DNA of 64,000 nt from an uncultured cyanobacterium (GTDB taxonomy: Bacteria; Cyanobacteriota; Cyanobacteriia; Cyanobacteriales; Cyanobacteriaceae): assembly GCA_963710605.1 (NCBI GenBank), contig CAVQBA010000005.1:224001-288000 (forward strand), in the 5' to 3' direction. The notes below the pieces were generated by a model. The model did no database searches. It was given only the letters and a program-made list of their open reading frames with translations, and was not told the origin of the DNA. Positions 1 through 14,889 of this stretch are shown piece by piece (position 1 is the first letter of the stretch; each line of letters begins with the position of its first letter). The translations under genes and the position numbers were made by a program.

Positions 1-1710
1 TTTGTCTAGCTTTTTTTCTAAAAGTGCTTTTAACCCTGTCAGAGTACCTATTTTAGTTAAAGTAATTCGATCGGGCTTTTCTTTTTGCAAAATTTCTTCA
101 ACAACTTTTTCTATCTTAACTTTAACTTCTCGATCTCTTTGCTTCCAATCAACTCGATTATTAACCGCCGCTGAAGGTTTTTGTAGTTGTGGAGAATTAT
201 CATTCAACCAGATACGATCGCTTCTATATAATCTGATATATAAAGCGGGAGATAATTTTCTCAGTTCAGTTTTTGTCGCATCAAGGTATTGTTTTTGTAG
301 TTGTAGCCAGTTTTGTCTATTTTGTTCTCGATCGCGCAGCGCCGAGCTGAAGGCTCGATCGTTTTGAGCATCTTTAATTTTTTTTGAAGGTAACGATTTT
401 GGTTTACGATCGGATTTCCATGAAGCATTTAAACTCAGTTTATCGACATAGCGATCGATCGTTCTGGTTGTCACTTTTAACTCTCTAGCAGTTGCCCTTA
501 ATCCTAACTTTTCGTTTTCGACTAAATCTTGTAATTTTTTGTACCACTGTTCGCCATAGCTAATGATTCGATTCGGTTTATAATTATCTAAGTTAGATGA
601 TTTTAAAATAGTTCGACTATAAACCATTCCACAACTACAAGTGAAAGTACCCAAAGGCTTCTTATTATCCAAACAATGACTTAGCTCTAGATGACGAATT
701 ACAGGTTGTAAATAGTGATCGACAGCACCGTTAAAACAAATCCAAGGGGTATCACCAAAAGGTTTATATATTGATATTGAGGTTTGCTCGAAAAACTCCT
801 CTACCGAACCACAAAGAAATCTCATCATTAAAATGTGACGTATGGGGTGAAAAGATTTACGATGCTTTCTCACGATATTAGATAACCAATTACTGCTATC
901 GAGGGTGACACTCGAACTTAAATAATCCAAAATATCTTGTCCATAAAAGAAGACAAATCGATCGAACAATTTTTTCCGATTGACTCTTTTAGATGCTGTA
1001 GCGATATTTTTGAACATTAGCAAATTCATGTATTGTTCATAATACCAATTTAAAGGGCGAGGAGCTTGGGGATTATCTAACAACCATCGAACATCACCCG
1101 CTAAGTTGAATAGTATTTCTTGGGTTTGTTTAGAATACACAGTAACTGAATCGATCGAAATACAATTACTTTGATTAGCCCCCTGATAATAATGTTGATT
1201 AAATTGCTGAACAGATAAATTACTATTTTCCAAGAGAATATTATGATTAGGGCAAACCAAAACACAAGATAGTTGATGAATCCGATGCCAATAAAATTCT
1301 CCATATTTTTGCTCATCTTCTTTTAGACATTGGCGACAAAAACGAAAATATTGAGGTAGAGGTACATTACTGGCAGAAACTCCGATACGAGTGTGTATGT
1401 TGCCTCCGTAGTTTGATTTCATTGATTCCCTGATTTGTAAGGCTCTTTCAGGGGTCATAAAAGGAGCATAAAAGTTATATAGAGTATTATTTTTCATAAA
1501 ATCATCACTGGTTAACTGAAAAAAAATAGGTAATTGTTTGACCAGTGCATCTAAGCCACAAGGTAAATCGGCTGTAGCAATAATAGTCCGAGAATTGAAT
1601 AATTCTTCGATATTCGATTTCGGGCTTAAGTTACCACTACGAATTTGATACCGAGCAATACCACTATAAAGTAACTCCCCTGGATATAGTTTCGGGAAAA
1701 ATCCAAGCAT
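1..1710 (-). CDS. tnsD: TnsD target-selector protein (long TniQ/TnsD family), 3' end truncated by window edge
   Basis: Read manually: ATG at 1710 and 570 codons without a stop to position 1. MLGFFPKLYPGELLYSGIARY start, FRFCRQC...EFYWHRIHQ...VCPNH zinc-finger region, then a TnsD-type extension (FHPIRH, FTCSCG, RVDWKQRD). Not in the ORF track because no stop lies in the window. Confidence 0.93.
   Translation of the reverse strand, partial: MLGFFPKLYPGELLYSGIARYQIRSGNLSPKSNIEELFNSRTIIATADLPCGLDALVKQLPIFFQLTSDDFMKNNTLYNFYAPFMTPERALQIRESMKSNYGGNIHTRIGVSASNVPLPQYFRFCRQCLKEDEQKYGEFYWHRIHQLSCVLVCPNHNILLENSNLSVQQFNQHYYQGANQSNCISIDSVTVYSKQTQEILFNLAGDVRWLLDNPQAPRPLNWYYEQYMNLLMFKNIATASKRVNRKKLFDRFVFFYGQDILDYLSSSVTLDSSNWLSNIVRKHRKSFHPIRHILMMRFLCGSVEEFFEQTSISIYKPFGDTPWICFNGAVDHYLQPVIRHLELSHCLDNKKPLGTFTCSCGMVYSRTILKSSNLDNYKPNRIISYGEQWYKKLQDLVENEKLGLRATARELKVTTRTIDRYVDKLSLNASWKSDRKPKSLPSKKIKDAQNDRAFSSALRDREQNRQNWLQLQKQYLDATKTELRKLSPALYIRLYRSDRIWLNDNSPQLQKPSAAVNNRVDWKQRDREVKVKIEKVVEEILQKEKPDRITLTKIGTLTGLKALLEKKLDK
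327..361. repeat. 27-bp SDR5-like element at a HIP1-like site, in frame within tnsD
   Basis: CTCGATCG occurs at 327-334 and again at 354-361, enclosing GC-rich CGCAGCGC and a CGAGC/GCTCG hairpin in an otherwise AT-rich gene. Confidence 0.6.
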
Positions 1711-1855
1711 TTGATTTGAAATAAATTGTGAAAGATGTTTGTTGCGAAAGAAAAAATTAGACAGCAAAGATGATGCAGTAGTTGAAAAACAGCTACATAA
1801 ATAGATAGGAGCGAAGTACTCAGATCAGCACAGTGTTCGCTCTATATTTATATGA

Positions 1856-2098
1856 CTAAACTGTTATTAAAGGTTGGTAATCTAGCAACTCAAACTTCCA
1901 GTAAATAGGAAATACTACCTGCTGAGTATTTGGCGGTGTTTCTACATCCAAGCAAAGTACTTCAAAGCTAATGCCATTAGAAACGTATTCTAGTTCGCTG
2001 ATGACGTGCCAAACATCTGTTTCAGAGTGCCGAATAATATCTCCTTCGGTTAATTGGTCAGCACAAATTTGGACTACTTCTACTGTCTGTGTAATCAT
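1856..2098 (-). CDS. Small acidic hypothetical protein (80 aa), upstream of tnsD
   Basis: ATG ORF, protein-like composition, co-oriented with tnsD and divergent from the HTH gene. Confidence 0.6.
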   Translation of the reverse strand: MITQTVEVVQICADQLTEGDIIRHSETDVWHVISELEYVSNGISFEVLCLDVETPPNTQQVVFPIYWKFELLDYQPLITV

Positions 2099-2367
2099 AG
2101 TAATAAGACCTTTTATTTTATTGGGTTTTGAAGAGAAGGCGAATCAATGCTGTCCAGGCGCGATCGCTTTTCTCTTCTAACTTTATGATAGCGTACAACG
2201 CTTATCTATAAACATTGTATACTATTTTTATAGTTGCCAAGTAAATAATTGTAGAGGGGTAAAATATCGATCGTATTGTTAGGTACGCAATTTATCTCAG
2301 GAATTGTCTGAATAAGAAGTAAAATAAGCGACAATATACTGGTTAACTTAATATCAAACCAAAAAAA

Positions 2368-2607
2368 GTGAGTGTAGTTAGATGGAAACTTCGTGAAGTA
2401 ATGGCACGCAGACGTATTACTAACAAAGCCTTAGCTATGGAATTAAACGTTCATCCTACCAGCATTTCAAGATTGAGAACTCAAGATCTTTTACCTGAAA
2501 TTGGCGGAGAAGTTTTAGGGCGAATAATTGATGGTATTAATAAGCTAACAGTTGAAGGCTATGGAGATTGTACTTTAGAAGAGTTAACAGAATTAGTTTT
2601 AAAATAA
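2368..2607 (+). CDS. Xre/Cro-C1-type helix-turn-helix transcriptional regulator
   Basis: VRWKLREVMARRRITNKALAMELNVHPTSISRL matches the Cro/C1 HTH pattern. Confidence 0.85.
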   Translation: MSVVRWKLREVMARRRITNKALAMELNVHPTSISRLRTQDLLPEIGGEVLGRIIDGINKLTVEGYGDCTLEELTELVLK

Positions 2608-2636
2608 TGTATGAAATATGAATGAAGAAAATATAT

Positions 2637-2892
2637 GTTTACAACGCCTAACGACATTTAATTTAGTTACAGTTATTGCCCAACAGTGCCAAGCATAAAA
2701 ATTTGTCCAGTTCACAACGCCTAACGACATTTAATTTAGTTACAGTTATTGCCCAACAGTGCCAAGCATAAAAATTTGTCCAGTTCACAACGCCTAACGA
2801 CATTTAATCTAGTTGCAGTCTTGATGTAAATCGGCTGGTATATCAACGCCTTCGAGGTTCACAACGCCTAACGACATTTAATTTAGTTGCAG
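2637..2892 (-). CRISPR. Mini CRISPR array: 4 repeats of 36 bp and 3 spacers (37, 37, 38 bp)
   Basis: Repeats at 2637-2672, 2710-2745, 2783-2818 and 2857-2892; + strand consensus GTTCACAACGCCTAACGACATTTAATTTAGTTRCAG. Directly downstream of cas5. Orientation inferred from cas gene direction and the AT-rich leader side. Confidence 0.96.
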
Positions 2893-3159
2893 GCAGTTAT
2901 TAAATTCTTAGCTATTACTTGCATGAGAAGTAAAATCGCATGAATGTTGATAATAATTTTTAAGTTACACAAAATATGATTTAATAACAACCAACTTTAG
3001 TCTCTACATCCTAAATATATTAAAAGTTTCTAGTTTTTGCAAGTACCTTTACAGTAATAATAATAGCTCAAATCTTTGTCAATATTAGTTTTTAAACATT
3101 TTGAGAACTACAATTAAGTTAACAAACAGATGTCCTTGTAAAAATTATCAGTTAGTTGT
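2893..3159 (-). promoter_or_regulatory. Putative CRISPR leader
   Basis: AT-rich non-coding stretch between the cas5 stop and the first repeat. Confidence 0.55.
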
Positions 3160-3789
3160 TTAGATCGCTTTTACAATTGTCCAAGCTGAATCTGGAGGAA
3201 TTGTTGAAGATCTCTTTTCTAGGGAATAACGTAGCCATCGAGTATTTTGTGAGCCTAGATAGTCAACCCAGTAAGGTAAAGATAAATCGCCATACTCATT
3301 TTGAACCAAATACTTTAATGTTAAATTACGATCGATCTCAGTTATCAAATCTACAGAATTTACCAAATCTCGGCTTTCTCCACAACATAAAGCACCAAAT
3401 CGACTAATTGATGCTGGATTAGCAAATGCTTCTGTAATGCGATCGCATAAACTAGGTTTAGCTCGATCTTCTCCTTTATCCACACAAACTATTAATTCAA
3501 TACCAGTTAGTATTTCCTGAAAATCTGGTCTAGTATTTTCTTTATGGTCTAGCTTTTTCTTTTTGAACCTTCTGATGGTTCTCAGAGTAATTGATTTAGC
3601 TGGTTCGGATAGTAGTGCGATCGCAATTTTTACACCACAATGTTCGTATCTGTCTGTTTCACCCACCAAAGATAGTAACATTCCATAAATAGTTGAAGGA
3701 GGTGGTACGGGATAAGTTTGCCGATATTCACGACTGCGAGAAGTAGGAAAAGAAGCAATGGGAACATCGACTCTGAGAATAATTGTCAT
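3160..3789 (-). CDS. cas5: Cas5 (type I-B / I-MYXAN DevS-like)
   Basis: LRVDVPIASF...REYRQTYPVPPPSTIYGMLLSLVG N-terminus, RFGALCCGESRDLVN loop, position after cas7. Confidence 0.93.
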   Translation of the reverse strand: MTIILRVDVPIASFPTSRSREYRQTYPVPPPSTIYGMLLSLVGETDRYEHCGVKIAIALLSEPAKSITLRTIRRFKKKKLDHKENTRPDFQEILTGIELIVCVDKGEDRAKPSLCDRITEAFANPASISRFGALCCGESRDLVNSVDLITEIDRNLTLKYLVQNEYGDLSLPYWVDYLGSQNTRWLRYSLEKRSSTIPPDSAWTIVKAI

Positions 3790-4740
3790 CTATTCCCCTC
3801 TTTTATTACTTTCGATAGATAAATCTTGAGCGATCTTTTCTTTCAAAGCCTCTACTATTGCTTTTACTCCCGAACGTTTATTAACTTGTTCGTACTCGCT
3901 ACCTTGTAAATGTTCGGTGATTTCTCCTCCAATCCATAATTCGGAAGGATTGAGATCGCTACTTCTTATCTGTCTCAATAGCTTTGGTATAGAAATATCG
4001 CCTATTTCATTTTCCTCATAGCAGTATAAAAAACGTGGTGCAAAATCATTTGTCCAGCGTAAAACAATACTTTCTGGTGCAAAATCGAAGAGAAACCTAC
4101 CATGATTGCCTCCTACTCGATAGATGGAAACTATTGCATCCAATAAATCTAGAACTCTTGATTTGTCTTTGCAAGATTCTGGAGTAATGCCAAAGCCAAA
4201 TTGATATCTCGTACCGTGAAATTCTGTTCCATAGATCGAAGTACGGTCTTTTTCACCACTTTTAGAACTGAAGGTAACTTTACCGTCATAGGGAACAGTA
4301 GAGATGGCACGTGTAACGTCTAGTCTTCCCCTCCTATCTGTTACCGTACCTTTTGGCTTTTGTTTCTTTTTGCTTTTACCTTTAATTTGAGGTGTTGTTT
4401 GCTGTCGATCATCATCCTTAGTATCTTTTTTAGCACTTTCTGCTTCAAAAAAACCTAAAAGATCGTCGTCAATATAGTCAATAGCGTTAAAACTAGGCTC
4501 TTGCCAATCAGGATTTAGTTGGCTGGGTAAATCATCATTCCAAACACGATTGACGGGGATACCTGCTTTTTGCCAGTAATATCTAATTGCCCAACGTATC
4601 GCTTCAGATGACACTACAGTGTGAGTTTCTCCCTGCCAAAGTAGTTTTTGTAGGGTCGTAATATTACCTTGATTTTCCCCGCGATTATTGGCTGCCACGC
4701 CATAGAAAGTTAAAATATTACCATATAAGTGAAATGTCAT
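3790..4740 (-). CDS. cas7: Cas7 (Cst2/DevR-like)
   Basis: AANNRGENQGNITTLQK, VSSEAIRWAIR, DDDLLGF and VGGNHGRFLFDFAPESIV motifs. Confidence 0.94.
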   Translation of the reverse strand: MTFHLYGNILTFYGVAANNRGENQGNITTLQKLLWQGETHTVVSSEAIRWAIRYYWQKAGIPVNRVWNDDLPSQLNPDWQEPSFNAIDYIDDDLLGFFEAESAKKDTKDDDRQQTTPQIKGKSKKKQKPKGTVTDRRGRLDVTRAISTVPYDGKVTFSSKSGEKDRTSIYGTEFHGTRYQFGFGITPESCKDKSRVLDLLDAIVSIYRVGGNHGRFLFDFAPESIVLRWTNDFAPRFLYCYEENEIGDISIPKLLRQIRSSDLNPSELWIGGEITEHLQGSEYEQVNKRSGVKAIVEALKEKIAQDLSIESNKRGE

Positions 4741-4742
4741 CT

Positions 4743-6389
4743 TTATTCTTCCTCCTCTAACAATTTTGCTTCTGTTGAAACTGAATCTTCATCTGCTTGT
4801 TTACGCTTTTGAGACTTATAGCTTACCAAAGATAATAAAGCTAAATCTCTGGCTAACTTCCAATTATCTGGTTTAGTAGTCAAAGGCATTAATTCTTCCC
4901 AATAGTCGGCAAGGATAGTGATATTTCCTGCTTTACTCCAAAAGTTAGCTGTCATAAAGTGACGAAAATCTTCAGAATTGAGACAACGAATCAAGCCAGA
5001 GCGTATGCGTTCGTTTTCACGCTCTATCTGAATATATTCTCCTTCTTTCCCTCTGCTATAGAGTTTGCCATATATTTTTAAAAGAGCTTCATGACAAGCT
5101 TTGACAAATAGTTTTTGTGCTTGCTCGTCCCATTTTGCATTTTTGACCATTTGATTTAATCCTTGTTTTTCGTAGCTAACAAACTTGAATAATTCTTTGT
5201 TTCTTACTGCATCAGTAAAGTTATGCCACCAAGGAAATCCTCTGGCTAGATTTTCGCTTATTAGTTCTCGGACAATACTTACAGCAATGAAATTTCCTTT
5301 TTCCCACTCTACAACTCTGTTAGGGAAATAACTATTACACAATTGATAGTTTTCTAATAATTTATCGTTTATCTCGACGACTTCAACATTTTTACGTATT
5401 TTCTGAAATCCCGTCCATTGAGTTTCGCCGAAAGTAATTATCTGAGAGCATTTAAAAGCGTTTGATTTAATGATACGTAAAGTAGCCTGTTGAGTAAGCA
5501 AACGCAAAGCAGCATCGCTATAGCCAGAAGCTAAGAATTTTTGGTAATCCCAATTATTTATTGTTTGTCTTTGTCTGGCGTATGATTCTAGATCGGTTAT
5601 TTCAGGAATTACTAAATAATATTGAGTTTTAGTACCGTGAAGATAGGATTTGGGTGCAATGAAGTAAAGACAAGCAACGGGAGCGTATAACAAGGCGATC
5701 GCTCTTTCAATAGTTTCTGTAAATTGGGTTTCTTTTTTATAAGCGTAATGTTTGATTGCTGCACCAGGGTACAGCCAACCTGTTATCCCTATTGTTTTTT
5801 GCTGTATATTGCCACCTTGCTTAACATCAAATAAAAACAAAAATCCAATTAGACTAAAATGAATAAAAATATAAAGTTTTAATTTAGTAAAAATAACCTT
5901 CGAGTTAAGTTTTTCGATCGGACATAGCTGTTCGGCATAGTTTTGATGAGCGTAAGACTTGGCTTTTTTGTAATTAATTGCAATTTGTAGATTATCTATG
6001 GTCAAAAATGCAGTAGCCTTACCAGTAGATTGGAAGAACTGATTATGTTGTAGAAAAGTATTTTTCATCCCAATATGAACAGCTAACTGACTTTCTTTAC
6101 TAAAAGATTGTAAACCTGTCAGAGAAATTAAACCGTCACTATTAACTTGGAATGATTTAGAGAATAACCATTCTAAGGCTTCATAATCGTTTCTCTGCCA
6201 ATAAAGACTGATCCTAGTTTTAGTTATAGTCCATTTAAAATTACCTGGGCGAGATTTTGGAGTAGGATAACGCTTTTCTAGAGCTTTTAAAGTCATATAT
6301 AAGCCAGCAACTCCCGCACGATGTAACATGGTCATACCAGGATCGCTCAAACTTATCTCTATTTTTGGTTTAACAGCTTTAGTAACCAT
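4743..6389 (-). CDS. cas8: Cas8 large subunit (I-B / I-MYXAN Cas8a1-Cmx1-like)
   Basis: PGMTMLHRAGVAGLYMTL, TFLQHNQ, GWLYPG and C-terminal ARDLALLSLVSY motifs; lies between cas6 and cas7. Confidence 0.9.
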   Translation of the reverse strand: MVTKAVKPKIEISLSDPGMTMLHRAGVAGLYMTLKALEKRYPTPKSRPGNFKWTITKTRISLYWQRNDYEALEWLFSKSFQVNSDGLISLTGLQSFSKESQLAVHIGMKNTFLQHNQFFQSTGKATAFLTIDNLQIAINYKKAKSYAHQNYAEQLCPIEKLNSKVIFTKLKLYIFIHFSLIGFLFLFDVKQGGNIQQKTIGITGWLYPGAAIKHYAYKKETQFTETIERAIALLYAPVACLYFIAPKSYLHGTKTQYYLVIPEITDLESYARQRQTINNWDYQKFLASGYSDAALRLLTQQATLRIIKSNAFKCSQIITFGETQWTGFQKIRKNVEVVEINDKLLENYQLCNSYFPNRVVEWEKGNFIAVSIVRELISENLARGFPWWHNFTDAVRNKELFKFVSYEKQGLNQMVKNAKWDEQAQKLFVKACHEALLKIYGKLYSRGKEGEYIQIERENERIRSGLIRCLNSEDFRHFMTANFWSKAGNITILADYWEELMPLTTKPDNWKLARDLALLSLVSYKSQKRKQADEDSVSTEAKLLEEEE

Positions 6390-6401
6390 ATTTATACCAG
6401 T

Positions 6402-7049
6402 TTAAACAAATACCCCACAACCCATTTTTTGCTTGCCTCCTAAACCCTTTTCTTGAAGCACAATCGAATCAGTCTCGCTCAAATTATTTGCTTCAATTCC
6501 AAAACCAACTATAATTTGCTTTACTTTTAGAGTTTTGGGTTTAGTAGTACCATCTTTTTTCGAGATTAGTTTTAGACTGGCTCTAATGCCTAATGCCTCT
6601 ATTTGTCTTTTAGCGGCTTCGATAAATGTTTTTGGTTCTTCATATCCTCTAATTACTACTATATGCGATCGTAACCTCGATTTGGGTTGTAGAAAATTCA
6701 TTTCGGGAATCCCTAGCCTAATCTTTTGTTTGCCTATATTTAGAAACTTCCCACTAAAAGAATAAACGAAAGGCACTTTTTCCGATGGCAAGCGAATTAG
6801 TAGTTTTGAACGATCGGTTAAATCTAACTGGTTTCTATTGTTGACATCGAGCTTTCCTGAAATCGTTTTGATACTAACATCGTCCCAATCTTTAAGCTCC
6901 ATTAACCTATATTTTAATGCTGAGTATAATTGATATCCATGATCGATGGGTAAAGCTTGTCCTATTACGGGAAACGCTAATTGAATATAGGGATTTTGTA
7001 TAAGTTCGATGTCGTTATGTTGTTTTTCTGTGAGTAAAGAAATCGCCAT
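6402..7049 (-). CDS. cas6: Cas6 crRNA-processing endoribonuclease
   Basis: LPIDHGYQLYSAL and the Gly-rich C-terminal loop GLGGKQKMGCGVF. Confidence 0.95.
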   Translation of the reverse strand: MAISLLTEKQHNDIELIQNPYIQLAFPVIGQALPIDHGYQLYSALKYRLMELKDWDDVSIKTISGKLDVNNRNQLDLTDRSKLLIRLPSEKVPFVYSFSGKFLNIGKQKIRLGIPEMNFLQPKSRLRSHIVVIRGYEEPKTFIEAAKRQIEALGIRASLKLISKKDGTTKPKTLKVKQIIVGFGIEANNLSETDSIVLQEKGLGGKQKMGCGVFV

Positions 7050-7132
7050 AATTATTATCCGAAAACAGTTATTCTAACAAAACTATTATTTTAGTGTTTA
7101 TATATTACTTTATAGCTAAAAATTATATATTT

Positions 7133-8068
7133 TCAATCAAAAAGATTTCTTATTGAACCGCACAAAAACTTAATCAGCATAATATGAGTTATACGATCGA
7201 TAGTTTGAGCAATATCGCAGGAGAACAAACAATATTCTAAATAGGCTTCGAGTTTCTCCCAGATTTGTGGCTGTATTGTTAGCAAAAAGTCTTTACCATA
7301 AAATTCTATAAAAGCCTCTATCAATAGTTTTTCATGGTATTTAAACTTGGTGCGTGAATATTTAGTTACAAATCCATTTTCTATTAGTAGTAAGCTGTAT
7401 TTACTTCTCAACCAAGTCATTCCCTGAAACTCAACATAGTTTCGACTCAACCAATCGAGTTCTTGGTTTATGGATAGTACCAGTTGCATAAATTCTTGAG
7501 AATATAAATTATGGTGTGTTTTACATAGATCGACTTGACTAGCACCATAGTAATGAACTTGCTTTTTGTAGAATGAAATTTTGCTATCTAACAAGGGTAA
7601 TTTGTGCTTTAAACAGATTAACATTCCTGGAATTTGATGCTGACGATGCCAATAGACTTCACCATATAGCTGTTCATCCTCTACGCAACATTGAGGACAA
7701 AATTTCAGAACTCGATCGAATTCTTTATCTGGTATTTTCGCAGCTTGGGATATGGAGATATTGGACTTCGATCGAAGTAAATCTTTGAAGAAATATATTT
7801 CTATAGGTGTAAGAAAACTACGAAAAAAAGGGTAGAGAGTATTCTTTTTAATTAAACTTTCAACAGTCAGTTGTGAACCTTGAGGAAGTTGACCGATCAG
7901 AAAATTAAGATTATTGGGTAAAACTATTTTGTCTGACTGTAAATCAACCGTCTCAAATAATTCTTCATGGGTTTGCCGAAAACTTTTGTTACCACTACGA
8001 ATATGATATCTAGCTACTACACTATAAAGTAGTTCGTCAGGATAAGGATTAGGAAAAGAACCAAGCAT
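7133..8068 (-). CDS. tniQ: Short TniQ (311 aa), adaptor for RNA-guided transposition
   Basis: FPNPYPDELLYSVVARY and LKFCPQC...YWHRQHQ...CLKH; lacks the TnsD C-terminal extension; overlaps the tnsC stop by one base. Confidence 0.92.
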   Translation of the reverse strand: MLGSFPNPYPDELLYSVVARYHIRSGNKSFRQTHEELFETVDLQSDKIVLPNNLNFLIGQLPQGSQLTVESLIKKNTLYPFFRSFLTPIEIYFFKDLLRSKSNISISQAAKIPDKEFDRVLKFCPQCCVEDEQLYGEVYWHRQHQIPGMLICLKHKLPLLDSKISFYKKQVHYYGASQVDLCKTHHNLYSQEFMQLVLSINQELDWLSRNYVEFQGMTWLRSKYSLLLIENGFVTKYSRTKFKYHEKLLIEAFIEFYGKDFLLTIQPQIWEKLEAYLEYCLFSCDIAQTIDRITHIMLIKFLCGSIRNLFD

Positions 8069-9753
8069 TAGTTAATATTAATGAACTCATCAATGGGATT
8101 TTTGACAAATCCGACTTCTTTTAAAGCATCATGTACTAAGATGCCGTCTTTTTGTGCTTTAGTCACAACTGACCTCAGATCGTTTTCTTGATATTTTAGT
8201 TCTAATTCAGTTTGTTTAGATTTTTTCTGATTACTATTTTTGACTTTAACAGAGGCAGTATCACCACCTTGCAAACTTAGAGCGTATGCTTTATTTACTA
8301 AAGCTTGAATGTTATGTTGCTTCTTCTTAGAGTCGAATACTTTTTCAGCACATTGTTTAGCAAGTAGAGCGTCAACATTCAATTCTTGAATTAATTTCAA
8401 TATTACATCATTTAAGATGGGCGACTGCTGCTCTTGTTGTTTGCGAGCCAAACGTCTAGCATCTTTTAGATCTTTTGATTCTAATTTGGAAACATATTTA
8501 TTCTGATATTCAACTGTACTTAGAGGGGCAATATCCTTATATCTTTTCATCCAATCAGTATCTCCAGATCTAATAGCATTAAGCATTGGTCTAACTAAAT
8601 ATAAACCTTCTTCTGCTACTTCGTGGATTAGATCTACTGTCATTATTTCATCTCCACCTTCTGCGATCGTTCGCCATTGAACCATTTTAAACAGCTTAAC
8701 TACCAAATCGATAATTCCTTGAGTTTCAAAGTATAAAGCTTTGTATATTTCATCAGATAGTTCTGTGTACTCTTTTGTCCACTGATATTTCCACATCCCC
8801 TCAACAAAAAACTTCCACTCTTCCCACTCATCTTCATCTTCTTGTTTCATACGATCCCAGAGAACGCCTCCTTCTCCTGTTCCCCTTCTGGCATTTCGGA
8901 AATTACCCTGAAGAATTGGATATGCTTCATTAGTACCGACTCGGATAACTGGAACGCCAATAATGTTATCCATTTTGACCAAAAAGTTGAGCAAGTCATC
9001 TTTACTTCTTCTGGCGTTGACTAAGTTTTGCATCTCATCAATTACAAGCATTCCCAGATGATGAGTATGAGCTAGTTGTGCTACTTGAGCCAACATATAA
9101 TCTTCTGAGTTACGAGTTGAGCCAAATTTTTTAAAATAATTTGTACCTATCAAGCGATCTATTTCTTTGAAAACATCAATACACAAACCTTTTAATGAAC
9201 CTGCGTGAGGGCAATCAACTTTAATCCAAACAATCTGGAATGTATTATGCTCTGGATGAGCGATAACTTGAGGATAAAGATCTAAAATATTTTTAAGATT
9301 GGTCGTCTTTCCCATCCCTGAGGGACCAATAAAAGTAAACCCAGAAGCAGAAGTTGGTACATCTACATAATTTTCGAGGATTTTACCACCTTTATTTTGA
9401 ATCGCTTGATAAATTTGATTAGCTCGACGAGCATATTGGGGTTTGATGATATTCCGAGCTAAGTAACCCTGCATTAATAAGACACTTATAGCTTGATGTA
9501 ATTGCGTAGTTTTGTTGAGGGGATTGAAATACCTAGATAATCTTTCAACACAATGGGTTCTTAAATGAGGCTTCAAAAACTTTTCTTCAGGAGCAAAGTT
9601 AGGCATTACTATTACAGATTCCAAAAATTCCTCTTCGGTCATCAAGTAAGGTAATGCTTGAATCATTGGATTGTTATTATATTCAGGCAGTTTATGGTCG
9701 CGATATATCGCAACAGTTGCTTCTACGCCATTGGGAATGTCAATTGTGTTCAT
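8068..9753 (-). CDS. tnsC: TnsC AAA+ ATPase
   Basis: Walker A GPSGMGKT, IKVDCPHAGSLKGLC, Walker B LVIDEMQNL, FRNARR. Confidence 0.96.
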   Translation of the reverse strand: MNTIDIPNGVEATVAIYRDHKLPEYNNNPMIQALPYLMTEEEFLESVIVMPNFAPEEKFLKPHLRTHCVERLSRYFNPLNKTTQLHQAISVLLMQGYLARNIIKPQYARRANQIYQAIQNKGGKILENYVDVPTSASGFTFIGPSGMGKTTNLKNILDLYPQVIAHPEHNTFQIVWIKVDCPHAGSLKGLCIDVFKEIDRLIGTNYFKKFGSTRNSEDYMLAQVAQLAHTHHLGMLVIDEMQNLVNARRSKDDLLNFLVKMDNIIGVPVIRVGTNEAYPILQGNFRNARRGTGEGGVLWDRMKQEDEDEWEEWKFFVEGMWKYQWTKEYTELSDEIYKALYFETQGIIDLVVKLFKMVQWRTIAEGGDEIMTVDLIHEVAEEGLYLVRPMLNAIRSGDTDWMKRYKDIAPLSTVEYQNKYVSKLESKDLKDARRLARKQQEQQSPILNDVILKLIQELNVDALLAKQCAEKVFDSKKKQHNIQALVNKAYALSLQGGDTASVKVKNSNQKKSKQTELELKYQENDLRSVVTKAQKDGILVHDALKEVGFVKNPIDEFININ

Positions 9754-9764
9754 AATTTAATTTA

Positions 9765-12011
9765 TTAGTCTTCAATAGATTTTCTCAATCTGTTTCTTTT
9801 TAATTTTTCTAATTTTTTGCTTTTGAAGGATTTAGCTTTCTGTTTGGGTCGATCGGGTTCAGTTTTGTTTGATGTAGTTTTCTGTTTAGATTCAGTCGTC
9901 TCTTCTATGGGAGTAATAGAACTAGGCGATTTATCTTTACTTAATTCAAAAGCCTCTTTTTCTCTACGCTTCTCCTTTTCAAAGGTACGGTTATTTCTAA
10001 TTCCTTTAACTTTCTTACTATTGCTTATAGTTTTATCTAAAACGGCATCTGTTGAAGCTGTTGCTTGCTCGACGATATTTTCAAATTCTGCCATTAGATC
10101 GACTTTGGTTTGTGTTTCTTTACCTTTGTATTTTTGCTTTTGCAGTTGCTCATAAGCCAATAAACATTCAATCTCTTCCCAAGTTTTGCCCACATATCTA
10201 TCTTCAAAATCAATAATCGAACATTTTTCGTAGTCTTTTCCATCAGAAGAACGAATATAAAGGTATTCTGGTTTTCTCGGATCGTATGATATATTTAAGT
10301 ATTTTTCATCTTTACTAAAAGATCGACTTCTAGCTCTTTCAAACCACTGCTCTGTTTTTGCTTTTTCACAGGTATAGTAAAGCTTTTTAAATTTAATACC
10401 TTTAGCTGTAATAGTTGCTCGTCCCAAAGGCATTAAGTTGAGTTTGACGATATCTTCAGGAAATGTTTTTAATCTTCCCGAACGCTTCTCTATTCCCCAT
10501 TGCCATAAATTTTTCGGTTTCGGTACAACATCATCTATAACCATATCAGTGTCCCGCTGATAATTATCAAGATAATGATTATTGTTGTGTTCTAGTATCA
10601 AATAAATAATTGCTTTGGTAAACTCGTCTAAACTTAATTTACTATCAAGACGATAATCTTTACCTCCTCTTTGAGTAAAATCTACATCTACATAACCAGG
10701 AACGAATGGTTTAACTTTACCGTGCATGGTTTTAAAATGCCTTTCCACAATACCCTTTTGATCTCCTCTATATGGTGCTGCATTTTCAATACGTATTCCC
10801 AAATTGTTAATGGAAGTTTCTACATTTTTTCCTGCTAATTCACCACGATCGCCTAAGATGACTTCTGGTACATGATGAACTTGCCATTGTTCCTCTGTAA
10901 TTTCAATACCGTATTCCGCACAGTATTTAACTTTGTCAGTAGCTGCATTAACTAGAGCCATCATCATTCCCAGCCATGAAGGTCCTTCTAAACCAACATA
11001 GACACCTGTAATCATTCGGCTAAATACATCAATAACAAGATACACAACTGGTCTGCCAATTATCCAGTTACGGTTATATTTAGAAACTAAATAAACATCA
11101 GCTATTGTGGCATCAATTTGATAGCGAGAACCAGGACCAATCGTTTCTTGTTTAGACGTTCGGGTAATAGCCCTATACTCTAAAGCGAAGGCTCTGCTTC
11201 CCCTTCTAGAGCTAATAGTTTTCTTAATATCTTTTTTATACTCCTTATCGTACCAATAGCGAAACTGTCTTATTGTCGGTCGTCTGCTTGGTGGAATTAA
11301 TACCGACTTTCTAACTCCGCGATCGTCATAGACTATTTCCTCGCTGTAATAATCTTTGAGCATCAATTCATAAGCAGTCGTCAAAAAGTTACCTTTTCGA
11401 TTATTGTAAAATTTGGAGATAGCAATTCTAAAAATTTTGAGATCTTCCTCATTTATATTTATTCCTTCACCTATTTCTGCAACTTTTTTGTACTTTCTTG
11501 GTCGCCCTCGCTTGACACTATTACTAGCTTTTCTAGTTTTACCTTTACCACCTGAATTGGAATAGTCGGGAATCAAGGAATTTTTAGTTTTTCCTCTTTG
11601 CCAATATTTCCTAAGATAATCATAGATAGTTTTTTTGGCAATTTTGTCTGTAGATTTGGCGATCGCTTCATTAATCAAAGAACCTCTTAGCGATCGATCG
11701 TATATTTCTGGTTCTTGCTCTACTATCGAGGCGATAATTTTCCAAGTTTTATCTCTTATTTCTATTTCTATCTCAGATAAATTATCTTCCGTAACTATTC
11801 TCAACCAAGGATCTGACTTTAATTTTATAGCTGTTTCCTCAGAAATTGCTTCTTCAATTTCACTCATTCTTTTTGCGTAAGGTACACCTTTATTAGTATG
11901 AATATCAAAGACAAAAGCAAGGATATAGTTTTCGTCTATCCAAACTATTCTCTCTACTTTTGTGGATTCTGGATCATTCAACCATTCAATTAAATCATTA
12001 ACATATAGCAT
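9765..12011 (-). CDS. tnsB: TnsB DDE transposase
   Basis: GPGSRYQIDATIADVYLV, IDVFSRMITG, ILGDRGE and KGIVERHF motifs. Confidence 0.96.
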   Translation of the reverse strand: MLYVNDLIEWLNDPESTKVERIVWIDENYILAFVFDIHTNKGVPYAKRMSEIEEAISEETAIKLKSDPWLRIVTEDNLSEIEIEIRDKTWKIIASIVEQEPEIYDRSLRGSLINEAIAKSTDKIAKKTIYDYLRKYWQRGKTKNSLIPDYSNSGGKGKTRKASNSVKRGRPRKYKKVAEIGEGININEEDLKIFRIAISKFYNNRKGNFLTTAYELMLKDYYSEEIVYDDRGVRKSVLIPPSRRPTIRQFRYWYDKEYKKDIKKTISSRRGSRAFALEYRAITRTSKQETIGPGSRYQIDATIADVYLVSKYNRNWIIGRPVVYLVIDVFSRMITGVYVGLEGPSWLGMMMALVNAATDKVKYCAEYGIEITEEQWQVHHVPEVILGDRGELAGKNVETSINNLGIRIENAAPYRGDQKGIVERHFKTMHGKVKPFVPGYVDVDFTQRGGKDYRLDSKLSLDEFTKAIIYLILEHNNNHYLDNYQRDTDMVIDDVVPKPKNLWQWGIEKRSGRLKTFPEDIVKLNLMPLGRATITAKGIKFKKLYYTCEKAKTEQWFERARSRSFSKDEKYLNISYDPRKPEYLYIRSSDGKDYEKCSIIDFEDRYVGKTWEEIECLLAYEQLQKQKYKGKETQTKVDLMAEFENIVEQATASTDAVLDKTISNSKKVKGIRNNRTFEKEKRREKEAFELSKDKSPSSITPIEETTESKQKTTSNKTEPDRPKQKAKSFKSKKLEKLKRNRLRKSIED

Positions 12012-12034
12012 TGGAAACCTTAAATATTATTTAT

Positions 12035-12850
12035 TTATATAATTGCTTTAATGATATTTACCGCAGGATGAGCAGCGATTTTTGCTTGAAACATATCAAC
12101 AACAATTTCTTTTCTCGAGACCAAATGTTTAAACAGAGACAAACAAGTTCCAATTTCTAAATTCATATCCTTATCTAATGCTGTTGTAATAGCACTAATT
12201 TTTGATTTGTTACTACTCAACCTTTCTTTGAGAATGTTGCTCAGATAATAACAGTTTTCATTGTTTTGCTCCTCTGACAATTTCCAATGATAATCAGAAT
12301 GAATCCATTGAATATTAGATGCGAAAGTTGTTGATATTTCTTGTTCGGTAACGATTGCCCAATCAATATTGTGTTTTTGCCAATAGCGTCTCTCTAATTC
12401 TAATTTTTCGATCGTTCTTTTCTTGCCAAGCTCTTTAGTAGTTTTAAATGTACGAGCAATTTGAACGGATTTGTTATCCTGTTCGACTGTCAACATAAAA
12501 TCGGTGGTCAACACGTAAGGAGTATTATTTTTCCTGTTTACTGGATATTTAATTTCCATCTCTTTAGCAATTTCCATTGCCAAATCCAGATCTAGTAATG
12601 GATACTGCTCTCTAATGTCTTGAACTTCCTTACTCCATTCAAATATATAGAAAAGCCTTGATTCCCAATCTGACATTAGATGATGTGGGCGATCGCTTTT
12701 CCATCCAGGCGCTCGCGAAGCTCTTCCTACAGAAGGAAAATCTTGAATAGTTATCCAAGGCTTGTAGTCTTTGCCTCGACCTTTACCCCGTCCTTCTTTT
12801 ACATATCGCTCAAACTTAGCTTGAGTCCAATCGTATCTGCTTCTAGCCAT
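12035..12850 (-). CDS. tnsA: TnsA endonuclease
   Basis: EGRGKGRGKDYKPWITIQDFPS, HHLMSDWE, DIREQYPLL, LTTDF. ATG at 12850 preferred over the upstream alternative start at 12865. Confidence 0.96.
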   Translation of the reverse strand: MARSRYDWTQAKFERYVKEGRGKGRGKDYKPWITIQDFPSVGRASRAPGWKSDRPHHLMSDWESRLFYIFEWSKEVQDIREQYPLLDLDLAMEIAKEMEIKYPVNRKNNTPYVLTTDFMLTVEQDNKSVQIARTFKTTKELGKKRTIEKLELERRYWQKHNIDWAIVTEQEISTTFASNIQWIHSDYHWKLSEEQNNENCYYLSNILKERLSSNKSKISAITTALDKDMNLEIGTCLSLFKHLVSRKEIVVDMFQAKIAAHPAVNIIKAII

Positions 12851-12893
12851 TAGAAAACTGCACAATATAGAATTACTATAATTATACAGCTAT

Positions 12894-12990
12894 AGTTACC
12901 AACTTTATTGTAATTTTGCTCTAAGTTACCAACTTTATTGTAAAGTTACCAACTTTATTGTAAAGTTACCAACTTTATTGTAATTTTACA
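12894..12990 (-). repeat. Tn7-like right end: terminal TGT and four identical 20-bp TnsB-binding sites
   Basis: AGTTACCAACTTTATTGTAA at 12894, 12924, 12944 and 12964. The minus strand from 12990 reads TGT-AAAATT-ACAATAAAGT, the TGT-N6-ACAATAAAGT spacing of the Tn7 right end. Confidence 0.92.
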
Positions 12991-13014
12991 ACATAAATAA
13001 TACATAAGTTGTTT

Positions 13015-14889
13015 TTATTCCACCGTTACCGACTTAGCTAAATTACGAGGTTGATCGACATCTAAACCTCTAAGGGAGGCAATGTAATAAGAAAGCAATT
13101 GTAAAGGAATTACTGATAAGACAGGAGAAAATAACTCATCGACTTCAGGTATCACTAACTTATCATCAAAAATATCCTCAGAATCATTCTCTGCCACCAC
13201 CCCAATCAAACGAGCGTCTCTGGCTTTGGCTTCTTGAGCATTAGAAATTACCTTTTCATACACACTACCAGAAAGTGCGATCGCTACAACTGGTACATGA
13301 GCATCTAATAAAGCGATCGAACCATGTTTCATTTCTCCTGCGGGATACCCTTCAGCGTGGATATAACTAATCTCCTTGAGCTTTAAAGCACCTTCTAAAG
13401 CGATCGGGAAGTTGATACCTCTACCAATAAAAATAAAGTCACGGGTATCAGGAAAATCATGGGCTAAATCTTCGATTTTTTCTTCTTGTGAATGGATAAT
13501 TCGCTCAATTTGATTCGGTAACTGAGACAAACCATTAATAATTTCTGTCACCTTCTGTGCGGAAATACTTTGACGACGATAAGCTAAGTCTAAGGCTAAA
13601 ATATAAAAAGCCATTACCTGAGCGAGGAAAGTTTTGGTTGCCGCTACGCCAATTTCGATTCCCGCAAAAGTATTTACTATTTGATCAACGATCGTTGCTA
13701 AAGTACTTTCAGGACGATTAGTAATCCCTAAAATACGGGGGCTATATTTATCTCCTGCCACCATGCGTCTTTGTCTTTCCATTTCTAAAGCGGCGATGGT
13801 ATCCGCTGTTTCTCCTGATTGCGTCACACCAATAGTCAGAGTATTTGTCATCATCGGCGTAGGGGAATAACGATACTCAGAAGCATATTCCACAAAAGTA
13901 GGAATCCCAGCAATTTGCTCTAATAAATATTTACCCACCAAACTAGCGTGCCAAGATGTACCACAAGCTACTATTTGGATATGTTCTAAATCTTCATAAA
14001 TATGAGGTAACAAATTAAGATTGACAGGATTTTCATCACCATCAGGTTGCCAATCACTATTGATATAAGCCTCTAAACAAGTACGTACCACTGCTGGTTG
14101 CTCGTGTATTTCCTTGAGCATAAAATGGCGAAAGCCTTGTTTTTCGACGGTTACAGGACTCCAATCGAGAGTACGAGGGGTTTTGCGAATTCTTTTCCCA
14201 GCAAAATTATAAATTTCTACTCCTAAAGGAGTTAGTCTGGCTATTTCACCATTTTCTAAAGTTAAAATAGTAGTGGTGTGATGAACTAAAGCGGTTACAT
14301 CAGATGCACAATAAAATTCTCCTTGTCCAAAACCGATCGTTAGAGGTGCGTTTTGACGAGCGACAATTAATTCATCAGGATGGTTTGCCGATAAAACTGC
14401 GATCGCAAATGCTCCATCTAAATAACTAATTGCTTTAGTGACAGCAGACATAAAAGGGTCATCATTTTCGGGGTTGTAATGTTCGGCTATTAAATGAGGA
14501 ATAACTTCTGTATCGGTATCTGAGGCGAAAGTATAACCTTCTGCTTTTAAATCTTTTCTTAATTCTTGATAATTTTCAATAATGCCATTTTGGACAACAG
14601 CAATTTTGCTTTGGTTATCTAGATGAGGATGTGCATTATATTCTTCTGGTTTACCATGAGTCGCCCATCTAGTATGTCCTATTCCTATTTTTGAGTTACT
14701 GGTATTTGATTCTAACTTTGTGCGGAGATTATATAGTTTTCCTTTAGCTTTGATTGAATGTATTTGATTTTCAGGTGTAATAGTCGCAACTCCTGCTGAA
14801 TCATAACCACGATATTCTAATTTTTCGAGTCCATGAATTAAAACATCAATAGCTGTTTGTGTTCCGATATAACCAACAATTCCACACAT
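13015..14889 (-). CDS. glmS: Glutamine--fructose-6-phosphate aminotransferase
   Basis: MCGIVG start, GHTRWATHG, C-terminal DVDQPRNLAKSVTVE. Confidence 0.99.
   Translation of the reverse strand: MCGIVGYIGTQTAIDVLIHGLEKLEYRGYDSAGVATITPENQIHSIKAKGKLYNLRTKLESNTSNSKIGIGHTRWATHGKPEEYNAHPHLDNQSKIAVVQNGIIENYQELRKDLKAEGYTFASDTDTEVIPHLIAEHYNPENDDPFMSAVTKAISYLDGAFAIAVLSANHPDELIVARQNAPLTIGFGQGEFYCASDVTALVHHTTTILTLENGEIARLTPLGVEIYNFAGKRIRKTPRTLDWSPVTVEKQGFRHFMLKEIHEQPAVVRTCLEAYINSDWQPDGDENPVNLNLLPHIYEDLEHIQIVACGTSWHASLVGKYLLEQIAGIPTFVEYASEYRYSPTPMMTNTLTIGVTQSGETADTIAALEMERQRRMVAGDKYSPRILGITNRPESTLATIVDQIVNTFAGIEIGVAATKTFLAQVMAFYILALDLAYRRQSISAQKVTEIINGLSQLPNQIERIIHSQEEKIEDLAHDFPDTRDFIFIGRGINFPIALEGALKLKEISYIHAEGYPAGEMKHGSIALLDAHVPVVAIALSGSVYEKVISNAQEAKARDARLIGVVAENDSEDIFDDKLVIPEVDELFSPVLSVIPLQLLSYYIASLRGLDVDQPRNLAKSVTVE

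Follow-up and report, generated by a model that had tools for sequence, protein, structure and literature searches.

A probable new CRISPR-associated transposon of type I-B1 with a full-length core behind glmS in an uncultured cyanobacterium

Behind the glmS gene of an uncultured member of the Cyanobacteriaceae (GenBank assembly GCA_963710605.1) lie Tn7-like transposition genes, a set of type I-B cas genes, and a short CRISPR array. This arrangement raises the question of whether they belong to a single CRISPR-associated Tn7-like transposon (CAST) and, if so, in what condition that element is preserved. The stretch analyzed, hereafter the window, comprises 64,000 nucleotides (nt), corresponding to positions 224001-288000 of contig CAVQBA010000005.1 (C5); coordinates given without a prefix are positions in the window. 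The host genome measures 3.93 Mb in seven contigs, with 33% G+C, and is 85% complete. We consider it highly likely that the locus is a type I-B1 CAST at the canonical Tn7 attachment site behind glmS. From left end to right end the whole element would span approximately 43.9 kb (C5:193072-236990) and, as far as its genes and ends can be read, it appears to be a new, divergent, and unusually well-preserved member of this known class. Type I-B1 CASTs are among the few natural systems that join protein-guided homing with RNA-guided insertion of very large DNA, and AvCAST is, in the literature consulted, the only one reported to have been reconstituted. A full-length, divergent copy would thus offer a practical second ortholog for comparing protospacer adjacent motif (PAM) use, end requirements, and efficiency.

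Moving outward from glmS, a 24-nt gap is followed by the right end, tnsA, tnsB, tnsC, tniQ, cas6, cas8, cas7, cas5, the CRISPR array, and tnsD (Table 1). The core genes listed there are all on the minus strand, each an uninterrupted open reading frame (ORF) with a Pfam or NCBIfam family assignment, and all ten core genes are full length in the ORF list, with tnsD completed from the contig. The first-pass annotation, which was made from the letters of the window alone, had described uninterrupted tnsA, tnsB, and tnsC genes, a short tniQ, cas6/8/7/5, and a long tnsD, and all of these were recovered as open minus-strand ORFs. This includes tnsD, which crosses the edge of the window: its first 570 of 634 codons lie inside, and on the contig the gene is intact and runs on for 194 bp beyond window position 1.

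The transposition proteins closely resemble those of Tn7. TnsA and TnsB are encoded by separate full-length genes whose best solved matches are the Tn7 proteins. TnsA aligns to Tn7 TnsA with an E value of 3e-47, with conservation of the residues aligned to what we take to be E63, D114, and K132 of the Tn7 protein. TnsB aligns to Tn7 TnsB over residues 4-701 and carries an acidic residue at all three of the positions that presumably form the DDE triad in Tn7 numbering, and TnsC (E = 7e-81 against Tn7 TnsC) conserves the GxGKT and LVIDE motifs (Walker A and B). The alignment of these catalytic and ATPase motifs with Tn7 makes it plausible that TnsA, TnsB, and TnsC are active. The tniQ gene overlaps the stop codon of tnsC, and its product carries only positions 2-106 of the TnsD domain PF15978, the first third of that domain; exactly this feature, a partial TnsD domain in I-B1 TniQ, is described in the available part of a 2024 Annual Review (PMC11406308). 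TnsD, counted from the methionine that aligns with relatives, is an intact protein of 634 amino acids (aa) with PF06527 and the full PF15978.

The cas genes fit I-B / I-MYXAN models (Cmx6, Cas8a1/Cmx1, Cst2/DevR, and Cmx5/DevS). Cas8 matches the Cas8 chain of PmcCAST (E = 5e-72), and its residues 415-545 align with the separate Cas11 chain of that structure. An AAGGA motif resembling a ribosome-binding site lies 9 nt upstream of Cas8 Met414; start codon and motif are consistent with a probable Cas11 translated internally from cas8, as is reported for PmcCAST and AvCAST (PMC13251919, section 11). Scans of 37 ORFs lying between the ends gave no match to Cas1 or Cas3, and a genome-wide search of this 85% complete assembly yielded no hit to the HD domain of Cas3. 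The earlier description of a module without cas3 or adaptation genes thus agrees with searches for Cas1 and Cas3, Cas2 and Cas4 not having been searched by models of their own. Cas1 occurs in the genome only on contig C1, outside the element. One of the two Cas1 genes there (G000:C1:178009-178873) is matched in two overlapping pieces, at model positions 1-217 and 208-283, which suggests a frameshift.

Both ends of the element could be located. After the 24-nt gap, the right end opens with TGTAAAATT, followed by three identical contiguous 20-mers, each with TACAATAAAGTTGGTAAC; a fourth copy of the repeat lies 30 bp further in, giving site spacings of 20, 20, and 30 bp. Exact copies of an 18-mer begin at 12895, 12925, 12945, and 12965, and no other exact copy exists in the genome. 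The 15-nt core of the predicted TnsB site has six exact occurrences genome-wide, all at the two ends, and a seventh, at the left end, has one mismatch; since the core motif is confined to the two ends, chance is not an issue. The left-end cluster consists of sites at C5:193083 and C5:193150 (both exact) and C5:193204 (one mismatch), spaced 67 and 54 bp apart, in opposite orientation to the right end and 31 kb upstream of the window. It is preceded by TGTAGAGTG at the same 9-nt distance as in the right end, and both termini match the 9-nt form TGTAnAnTn. Additionally, the left flank, an ABC-transporter region, is 83-86% identical to a relative (G018), and this alignment stops at most 4 nt from the predicted left terminus, a break in homology that lends independent support to the proposed left boundary. 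The Tn7-type end that had been placed 24 bp from the glmS stop codon was confirmed, the TGT beginning exactly 24 nt after that codon; the region had been drawn to 12995, and its terminus is instead at 12990. The left end that was to be sought upstream of the window was found there, with its three spaced predicted TnsB sites. Within the right end, the stretch 12925-12982 holds an extra identical 20-bp TnsB-site unit that stems from a recent tandem duplication.

Table 1. Features of the element, its attachment site, and its cargo (window positions unless prefixed with C5)
Feature	Position	Strand	Basis or remark
glmS, attachment-site gene	13015..14889	-	624 aa; TIGR01135 full length, E 5e-245
Gap, glmS stop codon to transposon terminus	12991..13014	-	24 nt, read from sequence
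Right end	12895..12990	-	terminal TGT at 12990 and four predicted TnsB-site repeats
tnsA, endonuclease subunit	12035..12850	-	PF08722 and PF08721
tnsB, DDE transposase	9765..12011	-	closest solved chain Tn7 TnsB 7pik_A, E 4e-125
tnsC, AAA+ adaptor	8068..9753	-	AAA_22/TniB
tniQ, short selector presumed to couple Cascade to TnsC	7133..8068	-	311 aa; PF06527 and partial PF15978
cas6	6402..7049	-	PF09559, 3e-56; TIGR02807, 2e-60
cas8	4743..6389	-	TIGR03485 and TIGR03486
Probable internal cas11	4743-5150, start Met414 of cas8	-	match to PmcCAST Cas11 chain
cas7	3790..4740	-	TIGR02585, 6e-31
cas5	3160..3789	-	TIGR02586, 4e-37, and PF09704
CRISPR array, four 37-nt repeats, three spacers	2637..2893	-	repeat detection; weak Rfam CRISPR-DR33 matches below gathering score
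tnsD, predicted glmS-homing selector	1..1710 (start 1710)	-	PF06527 and PF15978, 2e-101
Small Cro/C1-type helix-turn-helix (HTH) gene, divergent from orf80	2368..2607	+	PF13443, 9.5e-6
Conserved leader upstream of orf80	2099..2186	-	11-bp interrupted inverted repeat around GCGATCGC core
orf80, conserved 80-aa protein, directly upstream of tnsD	1856..2098	-	64 homologous clusters
Dispersed repeats in cargo	C5:205200-205800, 207550-208370, 212740-213000, 218120-218260		

The assignment to type I-B1, the AvCAST type, was part of the first-pass annotation and is supported by the split between TnsA and TnsB, the two selectors, the I-B effector lacking Cas3, and the offset from glmS. AvCAST (Tn7743) has the same gene order, running glmS, right end, tnsABC, tniQ, cas6, cas8 (with cas11), cas7, cas5, array, and tnsD (PMC13251919; available part of PMC11406308). 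Both elements also lie 24 bp beyond the stop codon of glmS with the right end nearest that gene, and both have three spaced left-end sites, no Cas1 or Cas3, and a short TniQ with a partial TnsD domain; AvCAST protospacers are 36 bp long (PMC13251919), as compared with spacers of about 36 nt here. Of 12 TnsD-guided AvCAST products, 11 had their right end toward glmS at a distance of 24 bp from its stop codon, and three sites were reported for each AvCAST end, contiguous in the right end and spaced in the left (PMC13251919, section 5). The Escherichia coli transposon Tn7 resembles the element in its heteromeric TnsA/TnsB, its TnsC, its TnsD homing to glmS, and its asymmetric TGT ends; however, Tn7 has TnsE, in place of which the cyanobacterial element has TniQ and a type I-B Cascade module. 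TnsD is also longer here than in Tn7, and extra ZnF2 and HTH3 domains are reported for AvTnsD (AvCAST paper, PMC13251919). The closest solved Cascade is that of PmcCAST (Tn7744), a type I-B2 element that likewise has two TniQ-family selectors and a cas11 inside cas8. I-B2 elements are characterized by a fused TnsAB and homing to tRNA genes (available part of PMC11406308), and an assignment to type I-B2 is ruled out by the separate tnsA and tnsB ORFs and the glmS site.

By analogy with AvCAST and Tn7, two routes of insertion can be proposed. For homing, TnsD would bind the 3' end of glmS, its presumed recognition site, and recruit a TnsC ring; TnsC would then activate the TnsA/TnsB cut-and-paste transposase, and the outcome would be an insertion 24 bp past the glmS stop codon with the right end beside glmS. 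For RNA-guided spread, Cas6 would process the short array, and Cas8, Cas11, Cas7, and Cas5 would load the CRISPR RNA (crRNA). The short TniQ would link this nuclease-free Cascade to the same TnsABC, leading to insertion beside sequences that match a spacer. The activity of the proteins and the continued movement of the element are likewise suggested by analogy.

The relatives of the element support its placement as a divergent member of the class. A search with TniQ recovered 120 clusters, among them a close group from metagenomes and metagenome-assembled genomes (62-80% identical), whose named sources are Pleurocapsa, Waterburya, and Xenococcaceae, and a Nostocales group (38-46% identical). 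With the query aligned in full (100%), TniQ shares 42% identity with its probable ortholog, a 316-aa TniQ-family protein of Trichormus variabilis ATCC 29413, which we take to be the same strain as Anabaena variabilis ATCC 29413. The latter is the source of AvCAST (available part of PMC11300857), and the comparison with AvCAST draws on its published description and on this TniQ protein. Two Nostocales-type genomes, G058 and G110, served as stand-ins; they have the same gene order at glmS and are not shown to be AvCAST itself. Identities to these two genomes are 54-58% for TnsA, 61% for TnsB, 57-63% for TnsC, 42-43% for TniQ, and 47-50% for TnsD, and, within Cascade, 48-53% for Cas6, 43-45% for Cas8, 51-55% for Cas7, and 58-59% for Cas5. 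In a quick maximum-likelihood tree of TniQ proteins (111 rows, 290-530 aa kept, midpoint root; a careful search was unfinished), the protein falls within a sister-like clade of 45 of the 111 rows with a support of 100 in the Shimodaira-Hasegawa-like approximate likelihood ratio test (SH-aLRT). The T. variabilis protein belongs to the other half, of 66 rows, within which two long-branch Firmicutes TnsD rows are nested. Apart from this element, the clade is represented only by metagenome assemblies, which are fragmentary and often broken.

Twelve closer loci (Cas8 67-86% identical) have gene order and repeat family in common with the element and differ from it in their spacers. Across an even sample of the phylum, a TniQ-family match at E <= 1e-40 was found in 13 of 401 genomes, this one included, a count that takes in long TnsD-type proteins. 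No bench study of this clade was found in the literature consulted, and the supplementary tables of CAST surveys may already list the locus or the clade.

The guides of the element are few. Its repeats lie at 2637-2673, 2710-2746, 2783-2819, and 2857-2893 and enclose spacers of 37, 36, and 36 nt. The array had been described as having three spacers; three are present, but the second and third are identical. Repeats 3 and 4 have a C-to-T change in common, and the last repeat is degenerate, with a G-to-A change near its 3' end. Because identical spacers coincide with this common change, one spacer-repeat unit must have been tandemly duplicated, so that two distinct guides remain; the duplication, located at 2674-2819, is a recent one. 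The repeat can be folded into a 6-bp hairpin near its 3' end followed by a short tail, a fold no better than that of shuffled sequences (z = -0.8). The genome holds four other kinds of CRISPR array, and I-B CASTs are described as always co-occurring with other arrays, some foreign repeats being usable if the hairpin fits (Hu et al., available part of PMC11300857). Related elements have two to five spacers each, with the same repeat family, and all of these spacers differ from one another and from those found here; arrays in this clade therefore do turn over.

Several observations weigh against reading the locus as an undisturbed and working insertion. A Tn7-type insertion is expected to carry a flanking 5-bp duplication of its target, and none is present: the left flank reads GAAAG and the right flank ACATA, and over 87 kb there is no other candidate left end that would carry the duplication. 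Debris of related elements is present outside the left end. A tnsD fragment approximately 2.1 kb out (C5:190580-190929; L001:6580-6929) is 90-92% identical in nucleotide sequence to the live gene and contains a 127-bp deletion and a stop codon. Approximately 6 kb out there is a weak match (E 0.001) to a 21-residue cas5-like fragment with a stop codon (C5:187079-187141; L001:3079-3141). Given this related debris, a rearrangement of the left junction is probable. In the right end, the contiguous sites outnumber those of AvCAST and of the relative at locus L041 by one, with four sites in all as compared with three in AvCAST, and the extra site may affect activity. On the RNA-guided side, no target of either distinct spacer was found in the element's own genome, in 250 further genomes from the order with up to 3 mismatches allowed, among PLSDB plasmids by blastn, or in viral contigs by exact match of full strings and 30-nt cores, which leaves this arm without a demonstrated target. 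In addition, no other I-B cas genes and no other array with the CAST repeat were found in the genome, so that a source of spacers in trans is not visible.

These observations bear unequally on the two parts of the claim. A target-site duplication is the mark of an undisturbed insertion, and its loss weakens the case for an intact insertion and leaves membership in the I-B1 class unaffected. The locus had been called apparently intact; lacking the 5-bp duplication, it merits that word for its genes and both ends, and not for its insertion junctions. The first-pass annotation had held that the lack of a left end or of a target-site duplication would speak against its reading, and here a left end is present and a duplication is absent. 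Its insertion junction being disturbed and its guides having no target in the collections searched, the element is only possibly mobile. An empty site for comparison was not recovered, the genes of the left flank being conserved in G018 and G012 but located away from glmS there. When the DNA on the right side of the G018 break was compared with this genome, nothing informative matched, and the ancestral junction could not be rebuilt.

The simplest reading of the junction posits repeated landings of related CASTs at this glmS; the region distal to the present copy would have been deleted and shuffled, and the duplication lost with it. The two fragments beyond the left end are oriented like the element, but their order is wrong for a single tandem relic. 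In a genome of the same genus (G001, L033:14700-14880), all that is left is the terminal TGT, a single TnsB site, and some 25 codons of tnsA, after which the DNA is unrelated; this remnant of approximately 170 bp, which begins 24 nt after glmS, is a relic of the same CAST lineage. The 24-nt offset is found in L041 as well. By eye, Tn7-like repeats are visible 24-25 nt after the glmS stop codon in at least 12 of 19 other genomes (L014-L032, first 150 nt), with AAAGTTG-type motifs of two or three different kinds, suggesting that in this family the glmS site is heavily used by several Tn7-like lineages. Among the 12 closest loci, a core gene is truncated, split, or frameshifted in at least seven (L038, L040-L045), and among such copies one whose ten core genes are all open is an exception.

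This history admits other explanations. One is that the element is a genuine I-B1 CAST whose genes are open and which can no longer transpose as a unit, having been immobilized by its rearranged left junction, by altered ends, or by silenced or inactive proteins. Such a loss of mobility would fit the missing duplication, the relics of related copies just outside the left end, the reduction of the same-genus copy at this site to a short relic, and the broken core genes in most of the closest loci, as well as the dispersed repeats that have colonized the cargo, occur host-wide, and imply a long residence. It is harder to reconcile with ten full-length core genes that keep their catalytic and ATPase motifs, with the terminal TGT and repeated sites retained at both ends, and with a 13-kb core free of any dispersed repeat; moreover, a lost duplication is no bar to excision, because the transposase needs the ends and not the flanks. 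We regard immobilization as possible but doubtful.

A composite of stacked insertions, in which the left end derives from an older related CAST, part of the cargo is the remains of that element, and the present core has lost its own left end, would account for the mismatched flanks and for the nearby tnsD and cas5 fragments, and it suits a glmS site that is busy with Tn7-like elements in relatives. Yet the genome has a single left-end cluster, which has 0 to 1 mismatch to the right-end sites in the 15-nt core, no second tns or I-B cas genes or fragments lie between the two ends, and the relics are outside the left end, not inside it; such a composite is accordingly unlikely. Far less probable still is an ordinary type I-B defence locus that merely adjoins a plain Tn7-like transposon. 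The I-B / I-MYXAN models that the cas genes match also describe defence systems, but no Cas3 HD domain was found genome-wide and Cas1 is confined to another contig; the cas operon is flanked by tniQ and tnsD and lies within the transposon ends; the array holds no more than three spacers; and this fused architecture is repeated in 12 genome loci and in many metagenome loci. A single type I-B1 CAST, its left junction probably rearranged, accords best with these data.

Directly upstream of its tnsD, this CAST contains a small gene, orf80, preceded by a conserved leader and a divergently transcribed HTH gene. Every source-given name among the 64 clusters of orf80 homologs is "hypothetical," and no Pfam, NCBIfam, or PADLOC family matched the protein. 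Its predicted model is a small seven-strand beta-barrel (mean predicted local distance difference test score, pLDDT, 83) with a weak likeness to domain I of EF-P/eIF5A and to a Tudor domain (best E 0.018; template modeling score, TM-score, 0.5-0.64), which may indicate an SH3/KOW-like barrel. Among six CAST loci, orf80 is 68-78% identical and thus more conserved than the TnsD that follows it, for which a partly shared set of loci gives 49-55%. Ahead of the orf80 start codon, a stretch of 75-90 nt scarcely varies across all 18 aligned loci, whose proteins differ by 20-45%. The leader showed no Rfam match and no covariation; lacking covariation, an RNA structure and a DNA operator cannot be told apart. 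A homolog (74-92% identical) of the HTH gene, a presumed regulator, holds the same position, upstream of orf80 and divergent from it, in 12 of the 30 metagenome loci that carry orf80, and in L036 and L039 a different, unrelated Xre-type HTH occupies that position.

In the same 30 metagenome loci, the gene after orf80 is TnsD-type in 12, a TniQ-family gene of about 460 aa in nine, and a 19-residue tnsD start in one; four lack a TniQ-family gene at that position, and another four break off before the next gene can be judged. The small gene travels with two kinds of TniQ-family selector, the 630-aa glmS type and the 460-aa type. An example of the latter is L052 (L052:1-7800), a differently arranged CAST-like locus with tnsC, a 349-aa tniQ, and cas8-cas7-cas5 on the opposite strand, their proteins 32-53% identical to those of this element. 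L052 continues with the same HTH gene, orf80, and a 465-aa TniQ-family selector, then hisF and rbcS. Within the sampled genomes, orf80 was found in two of 401. The Nostocales-type loci G058 and G110 yielded no match to it, and the combination of orf80 and an Xre-type HTH upstream of tnsD separates the present element from these AvCAST-like loci. In G058, an unrelated 78-aa ORF lies on the opposite strand between array and tnsD (L094, reverse strand 12333-12569); by eye only, it resembles a ribbon-helix-helix protein.

The HTH gene, leader, and orf80 most likely constitute a regulatory unit for tnsD expression. More tentatively, they may represent a so far undescribed module by which cyanobacterial CASTs control their homing selector and which could govern if and when the TnsD pathway is taken in preference to the RNA-guided one. 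In the available part of a 2024 review, co-opted regulators are credited only to I-F3 and V-K CASTs (PMC11406308). The CAST literature consulted, including the available parts of PMC11406308 and PMC10293859, contains no description of such a module, and the conserved small gene and leader before tnsD have apparently gone unexamined there so far.

Between tnsD and the left end lies a cargo of 31 kb, outside the window, and with it the element illustrates both what I-B1 CASTs carry, here type III-B genes, and how they age, as seen in the glmS relics. The cargo includes a complete type III-B Cmr module (C5:193.9-210.6 kb; L001:9884-19280, L002:1-6612) with Cas10/Cmr2 bearing a GGDD motif, Cmr3, Cmr4, Cmr5, and a Cmr6-Cmr1 fusion, along with a DHH-family protein, a CARF-HEPN Csx1, a WYL-domain protein, a VapE-like protein, insertion sequence (IS) fragments, and several unknowns. 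A second array in the cargo has at least 18 repeats and 17 distinct spacers, and no cas6 was recognized in the cargo. The possibility that this array shares the CAST Cas6 found no support, the hairpin of the cargo repeat being at its 5' end and that of the CAST repeat near its 3' end. Short repeats, 60-220 bp long and 75-97% identical, are dispersed over almost all contigs of the genome and are present at several places in the cargo (Table 1).

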